Shown here one piece after another: positions 1-22,004 of a DNA stretch of 64,000 bases (position 1 is its first letter; the number at the start of each line of letters is the position of its first letter). Origin of the DNA: Pirellulaceae bacterium (GTDB taxonomy: Bacteria; Planctomycetota; Planctomycetia; Pirellulales; Pirellulaceae). Below the pieces are notes generated by a model. The model was not told the origin of the DNA. It worked only from the letters and a program-made list of their open reading frames with translations, and made no database searches. The stretch is from NCBI GenBank assembly GCA_041752115.1, contig JBGSHS010000168.1:37291-101290 (forward strand), read 5' to 3'. Both the position numbers and the translations under genes were made by a program.

Positions 1-1
1 C

Positions 2-226
2 GCCGCGCATCTGATTCTGGCAGATTCGCAGTTGCTGGTTCTGAAAGTGGATGGAACGCTGCTGTTGATGGTGCCTCACCGTGACCACTTCGCGCCGCTG
101 GCGGAAGCCCGAGTTTCGGATCATACGACGCGTGCCTTACCGGCCCTCTCCGCTGGTCGGTTGTTCGTGCGTGACAACCTTCCCAAGTCGGGCACCCTCT
201 ATTGTCTGCAAGTCGGTCGTCCGTAA
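2..226 (+). CDS. C-terminal fragment of a PQQ-like beta-propeller repeat protein (5' end lies outside the window)
   Basis: Frame is open from base 2 to TAA 224-226. The tail ...LVLKVDGTLLLMVPHRDHF...LSAGRLFVRDN...LYCLQV resembles the last blade of the other PQQ-like propellers in this window. Confidence 0.45.
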   Translation, partial: AAHLILADSQLLVLKVDGTLLLMVPHRDHFAPLAEARVSDHTTRALPALSAGRLFVRDNLPKSGTLYCLQVGRP

Positions 227-18392: not shown

Positions 18393-18470
18393 ATGAAACT
18401 TAAAGAAATCATGTCGCGCAATGTGGAGTCGATTTCCGCCGAATCCAATCAGCCCGGAGACACTCCGTGA
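18393..18470 (+). pseudogene. Truncated N-terminus of a CBS-domain gene (remnant)
   Basis: MKLKEIMSRNVESISAES is a textbook CBS-domain opening, but the frame stops after 25 codons. The stop overlaps (GTGA) the start of the BON ORF, which lies in another frame. Confidence 0.4.
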
Positions 18471-18703
18471 CAACTTCGCAGGGACGGATCAAGGAAGAGC
18501 CGTGGGCGGTTCAACAGCTGGCATGGGGCAGCCGATTGTCAGCCACCGACGGGGAAGTGGGAGTGGAGCATGGCACTGTTACCTTGACCGGAATGATTTC
18601 CAGCCATTTCGCTTGCCGGGCAGCGGTCGGCGGTGCCTGGCACGTGGCAGGAGTCGTCGGTGTGATCGATCTACTGGGAGTGCGGTGTCCCCGAGTTGAT
18701 TGA
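18467..18703 (+). CDS. BON-domain protein (possibly the surviving 3' part of a CBS-BON gene)
   Basis: 78 aa. ...AVQQLAWGSRLSATDGEVGVEHGTVTLTGMISSHFACRAAVGGAWHVAGVVGVIDLL fits the BON pattern (I.V.V..G.VTLTG.V.S......A......GV..V...L). Confidence 0.5.
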   Translation: MTTSQGRIKEEPWAVQQLAWGSRLSATDGEVGVEHGTVTLTGMISSHFACRAAVGGAWHVAGVVGVIDLLGVRCPRVD

Positions 18704-18756: not shown

Positions 18757-19422
18757 TCAACCGTTTTCGAGCACCCACTGTGTGGCTCGCTGAAGCAACT
18801 CCGTCGCATCGGAAAGGTCGAGTTTGGCCTTGATGTTCTCGCGATAGCGTTCGATCGTCTTCGGGCTCAAATGGAGCTGCTCCGCAATCTGCCGAGTACG
18901 AAATCCGCGACCGATAAACTGAAACACCTCCATCTCACGATCGCTCAACTGCTCGAACGACGCGTTGCTTTCCAGCGTGGGCTTCCGATTCCCCACACGA
19001 CGTTTCAGCAGCTTCCGCCCCATGGACTCGCTGAGATAGACCTCGCCTGAGAGAACGGCACGTATCCCGTCAATCAGTTTTTCCGTTGCTTCCTGCTTGT
19101 TGATGTATCCCAGAGCGCCAGCCTCCAGCGAGCGTTCAGCAAACATCTTCTCATCGTGTGCTGAGATGACGAGGATCTTCAGAGAGCTGGATTCGCTCGC
19201 CAACTGCTTGATGACTTCGATCCCGTGGCCTTCCTTCAGAGTGATATCGACAATCACCAGATGGGGCTTCGTAGCCCTGGTCTGCGCGATGGCCTCCTGG
19301 TGAGTTGATGCGAAGCCACACACTTCCAGATCGGGCTGATTGCCGATCAGCTGCGCATAACCCTGCCTTACGATCGGATGATCTTCGACAATCAGCACCC
19401 GAGATCTTTGCTGTGACGTCAT
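18757..19422 (-). CDS. NarL/LuxR-family response regulator (orphan; no adjacent histidine kinase)
   Basis: 221 aa. Receiver domain RVLIVEDHPIVR...LVIVDITL, and LuxR helix-turn-helix (HTH) LSDREMEVFQFIGRGFRTRQIAEQLHLSPKTIERYRENIKAKL. Confidence 0.9.
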   Translation of the reverse strand: MTSQQRSRVLIVEDHPIVRQGYAQLIGNQPDLEVCGFASTHQEAIAQTRATKPHLVIVDITLKEGHGIEVIKQLASESSSLKILVISAHDEKMFAERSLEAGALGYINKQEATEKLIDGIRAVLSGEVYLSESMGRKLLKRRVGNRKPTLESNASFEQLSDREMEVFQFIGRGFRTRQIAEQLHLSPKTIERYRENIKAKLDLSDATELLQRATQWVLENG

Positions 19423-20406
19423 GGTAGTCCGATTCCGTTTCGTCTGCTATCGTGACGGTCCGAAAGGAAATGCTACACGTCTCTCCCCTCAAAGTGTTCG
19501 TTCCGCCACTGTGCGGAGGCGGCACGGGCAGGACGCATCTGCCCCTGGTTGGGTGGTTAGAGCGGACGCGAGCCGCCAGGGGTAACCGGCTCTACCAGTC
19601 TCGTGGCAAGGTCACCTGATCCTGCCCCCTGAACCTGCCAGATTCGGTTCCAATGCAGGCTGTCGTGGCACCCCTGTATTCTCCTGGCAACCCTGAGAAG
19701 CTTCTCGAAGATACGGGCCTCTTCGCCTTGAATTCTGTACCCACAGAAGCTCGCTGAATCACCATCATGCGCGAGTGATCAAGAGACCTGCGTTCTTGGC
19801 CGCAACCCCCGTTGTTCTTGTGACATGTCCGACCTCCCGATGGCTCCCCTGGACGTCACCATGACATGTTACCGACATCGTATGCCGCACGTGGGCCGCA
19901 GGCAAATTCCCAGCCACAAACTGTACCACCCCCCCGAGACAATAGTGTTTCACAAATGTGCTCAGGCCGCAAGCGTCTGGAAGGCGACCGCTGCGAAATA
20001 TTCACCCCTGGCAGAACTGCTTCCTGCGACACCTCAGGGGGAGCGGTGGGGGACGCAAGTCCCATAGGGAGCGACGCCGGGCTCACAGTGCCGACTGGCA
20101 CTCATAACGCCGACTGGGAAAAGAACCCAACGTCCAATTGGGAGAAGCGCGAATAGGCGACAGGCATCGCTCCGGAGAGAATAGCTGGTTCAACGCAATT
20201 CCCGGCAGTACGGATGGTAACGGGGGCGAACACGGCGGTCGATTCCTGCCGACCCTCTCAGCAATTCACTTCCACGGGCAGTGCCAATCCAAGATGTCTC
20301 TGCGGCGTTCCTCCGCTCTGATGTACCGGGAATGCGCTGTGGCGGCTCTCCCTAGCATCAGGACGTTGGCGAATCCCACTGGATGAGTTGGGAAAAGGAA
20401 AGAAGC

Positions 20407-20823
20407 ATGTATGCCGCAACGAAGCATGTCGGTGACCGGTTTCAGATTGATCCATCTTTGGAGGTCGTGGTCCTGGAACTCGCAGCGCGTCAAGTGAAGC
20501 TCGGTATTCGTTCGCTGGCAGATTTCCCGGAGTCGGTTCCGCGCATCACCCCCTCCGGATCGGTCGGTCGACCTGCTGCCTATTACCATTCGCGCGATGG
20601 TGTGACCATGCTCGTTGTTTCCCCGGCAGCGGGAGATCGACTCCAGATCAACCAGTCGGTCGATTTGTCGATCGACGACTTGAGCGAGCATGAGGTACGC
20701 TTGTCCGCCATTGCATCGAGCCATGCACAACGGCTCGTCCTTGCAGTGCCGGGAGCACGACCCTTTTCCTGGCAAGAGAGCGGGCTCGAATCGACCTCGT
20801 GGAGTGAGACTGCTCACCGTTAA
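20407..20823 (+). CDS. Tandem-duplicated CsrA-like protein (two CsrA-like modules in one chain)
   Basis: Module 1 MYAATKHVGDRFQIDPSLEVVVLELAARQVKLGI (from 20407) and module 2 MLVVSPAAGDRLQINQSVDLSIDDLSEHEVRLSAI (from 20608) both align by eye with CsrA [34 protein letters not shown]. Start set at the Met that matches the CsrA N-terminus. Confidence 0.55.
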   Translation: MYAATKHVGDRFQIDPSLEVVVLELAARQVKLGIRSLADFPESVPRITPSGSVGRPAAYYHSRDGVTMLVVSPAAGDRLQINQSVDLSIDDLSEHEVRLSAIASSHAQRLVLAVPGARPFSWQESGLESTSWSETAHR

Positions 20824-21211
20824 GCAGCAGTGGTCATCCTGCTGAGCTATTAGCTAGTGAAGGGCCAGCCGGTGAAGGGCCAGCCCCCGACATCTTGCTC
20901 ACGGACAACCGGCTCACGAGTGGCGGCGAGAGGAGTATTTCTGCGCCGTTGGGTGGACCAAGCGCCGCGAGGTGAAGCCGACCGACGGCCACCATCAGAG
21001 AACGGACGGCGACGAAGGGAAGGGGCTGGAGTGGCTCGCTGCGACGACCTGTCGCGAGGTCTTCCAGGGTGTCGGCATGCTCCGACGAGCGGGGGTGCGC
21101 TGGCGCACCGCCGATCAAGAATCGCACTTCTCGGTAACCGGTTGGTACGAGAAGTGCTGCCAAACTCCACAAGCTGGAAGCTGAGTAGAACGTCTTATGT
21201 GGAGACTGGTC

Positions 21212-21505
21212 ATGGCAGTGCATATGACCTGCGAGGTCGAGTTCATTGGTGGTCCTGTGGACGGCCAGACGGATAAGCTGGGAAGGCCACTGGACCCGTT
21301 TCTCGGGATACGGAGTGTGACCGAGGCGGACTCGTTGTGGGCAGCGGCGTGGCGGCTCTTGTCCGGGCACCGGCAAGCCTCCCATTCAGCCGTGGCCGTC
21401 TATGAACTCCAGCAGTTGGACGACGGGCGGCAATGTTATCGCTATCTGGGAACACACGTCATTTCACGTTCGTTTCTGCCAGTGAGAGAGAAGAGTTGTG
21501 GATGA
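21212..21505 (+). CDS. Hypothetical small protein
   Basis: GGAG lies 8 nt upstream of ATG 21212. Sequence MAVHMTCEVEFIGGPVDGQ...AVYEL...CYRYLG. Third-position GC is similar to confirmed genes (hand count). No known domain. Confidence 0.35.
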   Translation: MAVHMTCEVEFIGGPVDGQTDKLGRPLDPFLGIRSVTEADSLWAAAWRLLSGHRQASHSAVAVYELQQLDDGRQCYRYLGTHVISRSFLPVREKSCG

Positions 21506-22004
21506 TCGTGCTCAGACAGTTGTTCCTGGCGCAACTCACTGCGGGGAGGTGGAACCGGAGGAGTTGGCGGAGTGGATGGAGAGCTGGGACGACCTGGCAG
21601 CTTGTTACGGGCTGACGGGAATATCGGAGTTGCTACGGGTATTGCAGAGGGGGCGCAGCAGCACGGCGGACCAGTTGCGGCTTGGGAAGGTGCTGTGGAG
21701 GACGCGCGCCACACGGCTCTTCCTGCCGTTGTCGTTCTCCGATGACCACCGAGCGATCCATGGCGCTGAAGCTGCTCGGTTCATGAGGGCAGCTGGAAGA
21801 GTCGCTTTCGAGCACCTTGAAACGGCTACTGGTCTCCTGCCTTGGGCCGGTCGATCGCGGCTGCCCCACGCTGACAGACCGGTGCCGGAGATGGGCAGCG
21901 AGATGCCACGTCAGATTGACCGGCGACGAGCTCCGATGAGGGAGGGTGTGGTCTCCGTGGGCGCGGAGATTGCGAGCCGACGACCGGGCGCAGGCGGCCT
22001 TTGA
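21498..22004 (+). CDS. Hypothetical protein
   Basis: GTG 21498 overlaps the previous stop by 8 nt. The N-terminal 100 aa look protein-like (EELAEWMESWDDLAACYGLTGISELLRVLQ); the C-terminal part is Arg/Gly-rich and doubtful. Confidence 0.3.
   Translation: MDDRAQTVVPGATHCGEVEPEELAEWMESWDDLAACYGLTGISELLRVLQRGRSSTADQLRLGKVLWRTRATRLFLPLSFSDDHRAIHGAEAARFMRAAGRVAFEHLETATGLLPWAGRSRLPHADRPVPEMGSEMPRQIDRRRAPMREGVVSVGAEIASRRPGAGGL

Follow-up and report, generated by a model that had tools for sequence, protein, structure and literature searches.

Few post-transcriptional regulators of bacteria have been studied as well as CsrA. For its function, it is thought to need a pair of identical RNA-binding faces bridging two GGA sites, and one-sided CsrA binding has been probed so far with engineered heterodimers and single-chain versions. 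To our knowledge, almost nothing is known about the roles of the csrA paralogs of Planctomycetota. Here, a gene for a natural single-chain protein with two CsrA-derived modules (the tandem protein) is described. It lies in a 64,000-nucleotide stretch of DNA (the window) from a Pirellulaceae bacterium (GenBank assembly GCA_041752115.1, contig JBGSHS010000168.1, positions 37,291 to 101,290).

In the native homodimer of CsrA, RsmA and RsmE (PF02599; PDB 1Y00, 2BTI, 1VPZ and 2JPP), the sheet order is β5A-β2B-β3B-β4B-β1A and its mirror (PMC3791407). Recognition of the GGA guanines, two in number, falls to β5 backbone groups and to a critical arginine, R44 in RsmA, and L2 and L4 of β1 stack on purines (Morris et al. 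2013, PMC3791407). Each RNA site of RsmE is a patch composed of β1', β4 and β5 (PMC5864733). The sandwich tolerates rewired strand connectivity with the sheet order kept, as in RsmN/RsmF of Pseudomonas aeruginosa (PMC3791407). An engineered single-chain version, Re-CsrA, consists of CsrA residues 1-44, the 10-residue linker GGGGSGGGGS and CsrA residues 1-61 (PDB 5Z38; Ye et al. 2018, PMC5864733). In the crystal, it formed a compact core 'quite similar to the swapped dimer' whose first moiety was ordered over M1-P37 only; RNA binding was retained (PMC5864733).

The tandem protein resembles the canonical homodimer in that both of its modules comprise β1-β4 in exact register, with the hydrophobic core pattern, glycines of the G9/G33 type, a basic position 31 and, in module 1, basic positions 6-7. 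It differs from the homodimer in being one chain, in having no counterpart of R44, E46, V40/V42 and I47, and in an added strand with the motif YY[HY]S (the YYHS strand). Like Re-CsrA, it is a head-to-tail fusion whose first moiety has no helix. However, Re-CsrA is artificial, keeps one complete canonical site and binds both GGA RNA and the protein CesT, whereas neither half of the natural protein contains β5 or the helix, and the connection between them is longer (29 residues) and partly conserved. RsmN, in contrast, remains homodimeric and retains five strands per subunit as well as the critical arginine (R62); it contains an inserted helix and exhibits neither fusion nor β5 loss (PMC3791407).

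Two CsrA-derived modules in one gene product

An initial annotation of the window, made from the letters alone, had described one open reading frame (ORF) with two consecutive CsrA-like modules. When the whole protein was compared with the Pfam CsrA model (PF02599), it was matched in two stretches with an E value of 9.8e-07 and 29.1 bits, which was marginal relative to the cut-off of 27. The NCBIfam CsrA equivalog cut-offs were missed (25.5 and 25.1 bits versus 73 and 70). Tested alone, the part with module 1 (residues 1-68) matched the Pfam model with an E value of 5e-4, and the part with module 2 (residues 68-138) gave an E value of 0.28, which is below significance by itself. The assignment to CsrA needed more than a single sequence.

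Relatives were collected by an exhaustive HMMER search of 1.84 billion representative proteins at E ≤ 0.001. This search returned 23 proteins, of which about 20 were full-length relatives of 100-190 amino acids, all from metagenome assemblies. About 20 family representatives at 50% identity keep both modules, the linker motif and the YYHS strand. In an alignment of 18 members, the two-module layout was common to all, and all 18 matched PF02599, with a best E value of 7e-13. This alignment was cut into modules, and each module was compared by hhalign with an alignment of the 11 canonical CsrA paralogs encoded in the same genome. Module 1 matched the canonical paralogs with 97.1% probability (E value 5e-11, positions 1-39 on 1-39), and module 2 matched them with 97.4% probability (E value 1e-11, positions 3-38 on 1-36). 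In both modules, the β1-β4 core was found to be homologous to and in register with the canonical one. The two modules matched each other at 96.7%, and the whole family profile was colinear with a synthetic CsrA-GSGS-CsrA profile (98.7%, E value 3e-16). In a profile search of PDB sequences, CsrA entries were matched for both halves. The best single-stretch matches of the family profile were the chains of 5Z38, and the match to the CsrA chain of that entry spanned profile positions 66-111.

Both Pfam and profile-profile comparison bore out the proposed layout, and, at the level of sequence comparison, the presence of two CsrA-derived modules in one real gene product was confirmed. Characteristic residues of module 1 are K6, H7, G9, E19, V22, K31, G33 and R35; module 2 is recognizable from MLVVS...GDRLQINQSVDLSIDDL...VRLS. 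The open frame on the plus strand extends from 20383 to 20823. The ATG at 20407 is the likely start codon because homologues begin at an aligned methionine and a Shine-Dalgarno-like AAGGAAAG lies just upstream of it, at a distance of 5-12 nucleotides.

Loss of β5 and the helix and gain of a new strand

In both modules, CsrA homology stops at position 36. Beyond this position, canonical CsrA continues with A36-P37, strand β5 (V40-R44) and a helix, and neither β5 nor the C-terminal helix has a counterpart in either module. No complete canonical module (β1-β5 and helix) is present in the tandem protein, as both modules end after β4. Positions M1, L2, V3, R6, R44 and E46 are invariant in the 11 canonical paralogs of the genome, and R44 and E46 are absent from both modules of the tandem protein. 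The initial annotation had stated that the canonical basic residues were only partly kept. This is correct as far as it goes, since module 1 has K6 H7, module 2 has SP in their place, and the AP..VHREE stretch is missing; the loss nevertheless goes beyond a few residues, because the entire β5/helix unit is gone from both modules. Judging from the sequence, neither face is likely to be a canonical GGA-binding face because this unit is missing from both modules.

Permissive hhalign extension of the homology into the linker yielded no reliable alignment. P41 and P45 of the linker were placed on canonical P37 and P41 with low confidence, and the linker may be a vestige of the CsrA β4-β5 loop. It is followed by the YYHS strand, which is specific to the family and highly conserved (Y59 in 94%, Y60 in 89%, S62 in 89% and G65 in 100% of members). 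The C-terminal tail has a mean top-residue frequency of 0.19, and some family members terminate directly after β4 of module 2. Coordinates of these and other features are given in Table 1.

Table 1. Features of the tandem CsrA-like gene and its surroundings in the window.
Feature	Position	Residues	Strand	Evidence and remarks
Tandem CsrA-like gene	20407..20823, stop codon included		+	138-aa protein; ORF, Pfam CsrA match, conserved family
Module 1, CsrA strands β1-β4	20407..20514	1-36	+	hhalign 97.1%; AlphaFold2 strands 2-6, 11-15, 18-25, 29-36; predicted local distance difference test score (pLDDT) about 90
Linker	20515..20577	37-57	+	weakly conserved P-x-x-x-P-[RP]-[IVL] motif
Family-specific strand and turn AYYHSRDG	20578..20601	58-65	+	motif Y59 Y60 [HY]61 S62 x x G65
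Module 2, second β1-β4 set	20602..20715	66-103	+	hhalign 97.4%; AlphaFold2 strands 66-71, 78-81, 85-92, 97-103
C-terminal tail	20716..20820	104-138	+	pLDDT 47-55; predicted disordered; poorly conserved
Antisense 183-aa ORF	20266..20817		-	shadow ORF, not a gene; closed in L009-L011
5' leader	20361..20406		+	four GGA motifs, the last one within Shine-Dalgarno-like AAGGAAAG
NarL/LuxR-type response regulator	18757..19422		-	Pfam Response_reg and GerE; divergently transcribed syntenic neighbour
Gap without credible gene	19423..20406		.	984 bp; BON-like, FHA and canonical csrA genes here in related loci

Predicted structure and the two faces

The structure of the window protein was modelled by AlphaFold2 from an alignment of only 9 sequences. 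The model had a mean pLDDT of 78.6 and a predicted template modelling score (pTM) of 0.67, and pLDDT was about 88-95 in the blocks 1-40 and 61-100. In addition to the strands of the two modules (Table 1), it contained a strand at residues 58-63 and a bridge at residues 47-48. A model of another member, P0004, exhibited the identical nine strands with a pTM of 0.69. The strands are predicted where the interdigitated CsrA sandwich would require them. In both models, strand 58-63 was followed by a 2-residue turn leading into β1 of module 2. The nine strands, the pLDDT of around 90 in both modules and the pTM of 0.67 and 0.69 in two members argue for one compact domain as opposed to two loose halves.

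A single-chain pseudo-dimer with the CsrA fold is probable. The asymmetric pseudo-dimer suggested in the initial annotation remains the most economical fold, considering the confident compact core of the AlphaFold2 model, the sheet order of the native dimer and the folding of the engineered CsrA(1-44)-linker-CsrA protein in the manner of the native dimer. That a head-to-tail fusion can fold when its first half ends after β4 is known from experiment, since nothing beyond M1-P37 is ordered in the first moiety of Re-CsrA.

The position of the YYHS strand may be deduced as follows. It would run antiparallel beside β1 of module 2 because a two-residue turn ending in an invariant glycine joins them. 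It would occupy the edge slot of β5(A) because the other neighbour of β1(B) is β4(A) and only that place is free. We infer that the YYHS strand replaces β5 of module 1 with reversed direction. The native sheet order and the reading of GGA by β5 and R44 lead both to this placement and to the expected loss of canonical recognition.

Conservation was found to be distributed asymmetrically between the two predicted patches. In the patch formed by β4 of module 1, the YYHS strand and β1 of module 2, top-residue frequencies were 0.79, 0.68 and 0.73, respectively; this patch, where family conservation is highest, includes the invariant K31 (R31 in CsrA) and G33, the near-invariant R35 and Y59, and the canonical-looking MLVVS. 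In the opposite patch, the frequencies were 0.39 for β1 of module 1 and 0.48 for β4 of module 2. The positions equivalent to L2 and L4 are variable there, K6 and R7 are mostly kept in module 1, and the tail that would be needed to supply a β5 is variable and, in some members, absent. The family also exhibits a charge asymmetry: most members have a net acidic module 2, and the majority of linkers and tails are basic.

Natural fusions of complete CsrA domains

The initial annotation had named no characterised tandem CsrA. The architecture has precedents, since natural fusions of two complete CsrA domains exist and an engineered one has been crystallised (PDB 5Z38). A search of 5.8 billion proteins was performed with a profile of canonical CsrAs concatenated with themselves. 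Its top 23 matches (P0027-P0049), which stem from metagenomes, were natural fusions of two complete CsrA domains with lengths of 131-175 amino acids, scores of 105-153 bits and coverage of 85-100%. Both halves of these proteins read MLVLSRK...APKE.PVHRRE, and Pfam matched them in two stretches with 154-164 bits. They are annotated merely as 'carbon storage regulator' (an example is locus L037 4001-4411), and one such fusion is a called gene in an NCBI assembly. A subgroup (P0033, P0037, P0041 and P0046) has a common linker, PSQPIEKLVGPGLVPRGP, and its conservation argues against assembly artefacts. On the evidence of these sequences, the covalent tandem of CsrA is a recurring architecture.

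The natural CsrA-CsrA fusions have two CsrA modules per polypeptide, as the tandem protein does, and their sequences resemble planctomycete CsrAs. However, both of their modules keep AP..VHRRE and the helix, so that two canonical faces are expected, whereas the family studied here is a separate and far more degenerate lineage; neither search retrieved the other group. As judged from the alignments, what is particular to this family is how far it has been remodelled: it has lost both β5/helix units and gained a conserved strand, and a single face has stayed conserved. Literature searches on tandem or fused CsrA returned no description of a natural tandem, and tandems were not mentioned in a 2026 survey of more than 20,000 CsrA homologues (PMC13443453). 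Natural single-chain CsrAs thus appear to be unreported in the searched literature, and the present family is an extreme case of them.

Genomic context of the tandem gene

The tandem gene was found in a conserved neighbourhood in related genomes. In three homologous loci (L009, L010 and L011), the gene order is BON-like (82 amino acids), FHA (120-125 amino acids), canonical csrA, tandem gene and BON (86-100 amino acids). The canonical csrA encodes 72 amino acids in L010, is a 36-amino-acid relic in L009 and is not called in L011. In two other loci (L029 and L030), the order is FHA, csrA (70 amino acids), tandem gene and a gene for a 78-amino-acid HisKA-like protein. The divergent upstream gene encodes a CheB-CheR-PAS-GAF-HisKA_3 hybrid kinase in L009 and L011, and in L029 it encodes a NarL-type regulator preceded by a HisKA kinase. 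The more distant members L031 and L033 have unrelated neighbours. The family thereby marks an uncharacterised conserved cluster in Planctomycetota-like genomes, comprising BON, FHA, csrA, tandem csrA-like and BON genes together with a NarL-type two-component system.

In the window, only the regulator of this cluster is kept. It is 56% identical (E value 1.7e-79) to the L029 regulator located in the same place. The BON-like, FHA and csrA genes are replaced by a 984-bp gap, in which tblastn at E values up to 10 detected no remnants of FHA, csrA or BON-like genes. An Rfam search of the gap gave no match, and adjacency of FHA and csrA was not found elsewhere in the host genome.

Proposed mode of action and alternative explanations

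The following mode of action is proposed. Most likely, the two β1-β4 half-domains, separated by a linker of approximately 30 residues, interdigitate within one chain in the manner of two CsrA subunits. The YY[HY]S strand and the turn with the invariant glycine would form a hairpin with β1 of module 2, antiparallel and at the place of the module 1 β5. The loss of β5 and its replacement by the YYHS strand would make the two faces unequal. One face, built from β4 of module 1, the YYHS strand and β1 of module 2, would be remodelled and highly conserved; the other, built from β1 of module 1, β4 of module 2 and the tail, would be poorly conserved. The conserved face could bind its ligand monovalently, and this ligand would most likely be RNA recognized with altered, non-canonical specificity. 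The protein might act within a stress-type regulon to which, in related genomes, FHA, canonical CsrA and BON-domain proteins and a NarL-type two-component system would also belong. For this explanation as a whole, in which a covalently linked CsrA pseudo-dimer, remodelled on one face and degenerate on the other, serves as a monovalent ligand binder, the chances appear to be even. The narrower proposal that the protein binds RNA is tentative and has slightly less than an even chance; any such binding would involve the conserved, remodelled face and a mode other than canonical GGA recognition. Canonical GGA binding would be very unlikely given the residues lost. If RNA binding proves true, the CsrA fold can evolve both a new specificity and a monovalent mode.

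Several points weigh against the proposed explanation. A Foldseek comparison of the model with single PDB chains returned no match, a result that was expected because the CsrA fold exists only as an interdigitated pair. The AlphaFold2 alignment was shallow, at 9 sequences, and the interdigitated topology, like the slot assigned to the YYHS strand, was deduced. R44, the residue most critical for RNA binding by CsrA, and the β5 backbone that reads GGA are absent. The window protein is also atypical: it is unusually acidic, with an isoelectric point of 5.9 and a module 2 net charge of -4, and it departs from many members in having P73 in place of R and V44 in place of T. Finally, the FHA and csrA neighbours are missing in the window.

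Alternatively, the protein could be a decoy or antagonist that binds a protein and not RNA. In this case, the conserved face or the vacant β5 slot would bind the co-encoded CsrA, or it would engage the FHA protein through the phosphorylated threonine of a T-P motif in the linker. Such a role is possible but doubtful. It is consistent with the loss of both β5 strands, R44 and E46, with the net acidic module 2 of most members, and with the common occurrence of the T-P motif in the family linker. The tandem gene is located directly downstream of canonical csrA and FHA genes in L010, L029 and L030 (with a csrA relic in L009), and protein antagonists that cover the RNA face of CsrA are known, e.g. 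CesT (PMC5864733). However, the linker threonine varies: the window protein has V at this place, and P0003, which has an FHA neighbour, has M. The gene persists without FHA and csrA neighbours in L031, L033 and the window, and most members keep the basic K6/R7, K31, R35 and basic tails. If protein binding proves true, the family would represent a new type of modulator of the Csr system. A further and less likely proposal is that the CsrA scaffold was repurposed when both β5 strands were lost: the Tyr-Tyr-His/Ser strand together with K31, R35 and β1 of module 2 might constitute a new aromatic nucleic-acid face unrelated to GGA, or the vacant β5 slot might be filled in trans by a strand of the co-encoded canonical CsrA or of the FHA protein (donor-strand complementation). 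If the strand-in-trans proposal proves true, no protein antagonist or adaptor of the Csr system derived from CsrA would precede this one, and it would connect that system with Ser/Thr phospho-signalling in Planctomycetota.

It was also considered whether the window copy is a decaying relic whose operon collapsed here and whose gene is drifting, in which case the family may function elsewhere. The replacement of the FHA, csrA and BON-like neighbours by 984 bp of non-coding DNA, the deviations of the protein at H7, V44 and P73, its longer and unusually acidic tail, and the remnant-like appearance of the adjoining BON gene are compatible with decay. Nevertheless, the ORF is intact and has a good Shine-Dalgarno sequence, all six invariant columns (G9, V22, K31, G33, G65 and G76) are kept, as are four of the five near-invariant positions listed (E19, R35, Y59 and I81), the AlphaFold2 confidence equals that of a typical member, and the syntenic response regulator is intact. 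Decay of this copy is improbable. Far less probable still is that the CsrA likeness is misleading, that is, that the protein has an S1/OB-like or another small β fold or that the antisense ORF is the real gene. Ribosomal protein S1 was the top PDB profile match by summed score (E value 5e-6), and module 2 alone was insignificant against Pfam CsrA. However, the S1 score adds up five weak stretches, none of which has an E value better than 4 by itself, whereas the CsrA matches are single-stretch and in register from residue 1, with hhalign probabilities of 97-98.7%. As for the antisense frame, which is open over 183 codons, the initial annotation had noted that a conserved and expressed gene there would overturn its own reading. 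This ORF had no Pfam or NCBIfam match, and its counterparts in the three homologous loci L009-L011 are interrupted, with at least two stops in each antisense frame. It is a shadow ORF of GC-rich (60%) sequence.

Minor features of the locus and the host genome

The leader of the tandem gene contains four GGA motifs in its final 46 nucleotides; at least four GGA occur in just 2.2% of the 60-nucleotide windows of the 64-kb sequence. This arrangement would be compatible with regulation of the gene by a canonical CsrA, of which the genome has 11, but is suggestive only. A GGA is present at -9 to -12 in all homologous loci, which is the Shine-Dalgarno position; since a GGA is expected there anyway, little weight is placed on the leader motifs. 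A scan for promoters and terminators in the 984-bp gap gave no signal above chance. A CsrB-like sponge RNA in this gap was considered and rejected: the GGA counts were average (18 and 24, compared with a mean of 18.3 and a standard deviation of 5.5), and Rfam gave no match.

In the related loci, the 36-amino-acid csrA ORF of L009 (4813-4923) shares both ends with its 72-amino-acid counterpart in L010, namely, MLVLT.RRGE at the N-terminus and …HNRRRPVVVVKRA in the C-terminal tail, and it appears to carry an internal deletion. The HisKA-like gene of L029 (6542-6778) occupies the slot downstream of the tandem gene in which BON proteins are encoded in other loci; its 78-amino-acid product has a weak, stand-alone match to HisKA (the dimerisation/phospho-acceptor domain) with an E value of 6e-5, which is under the cut-off.

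Nearby genes of the window are of stress type and encode a peroxiredoxin-like AhpC/TSA protein, a BON remnant, a CBS protein, a PolX-like HhH protein and a DUF1328-like small membrane ORF. Pfam identifies the 78-amino-acid ORF at 18467-18703 as a BON domain (32.6 bits). Ahead of it, within the region 18393-18703 but in a different frame, lies a short ORF that ends in …MKLKEIMSRNVESISAES and resembles the start of a CBS domain. Downstream of the tandem gene, two overlapping plus-strand ORFs, 21197-21505 (102 amino acids) and 21498-22004 (168 amino acids), are without family assignment; the latter has only a sub-threshold match of 28 residues to 2-oxoacid_dh.

The host genome is an assembly of 11.8 Mb in 451 contigs with a completeness of 94.6%, and it contains one copy of the tandem family. 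DUF1559 (PF07596), whose expansion is a hallmark of Planctomycetota, had 50 matches in this genome and 0 in 14 control genomes. The top canonical matches of the search with the concatenated CsrA profile likewise carry the NCBI label Planctomycetota. Besides the host, just two representative genomes belong to its GTDB family. When a sample of 400 further genomes of the phylum was searched, the tandem family profile detected no full-length member, only half-length matches to ordinary CsrAs, and a synthetic full-tandem profile at E ≤ 1e-28 detected nothing, which is a weak negative because this search had no positive control. Among GTDB representative genomes, a single-protein query found nothing, and a closer alignment gave only two short, spurious matches in Bacteroidota.

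High CsrA prevalence in Planctomycetota and up to 15 paralogs per genome have been noted (PMC13443453). The host has 11 canonical CsrA paralogs. One of these paralogs (G000, contig C360:149818-149970, plus strand) is the N-terminal domain of an open frame of approximately 336 amino acids. In this frame, CsrA is followed by a coiled-coil-like segment and then by an apparent response-regulator receiver domain (…LLVEDDANESELLAGFLRLSGFQVDTAADGRDAL…). By its predicted domain order, this paralog would be a CsrA-REC fusion.

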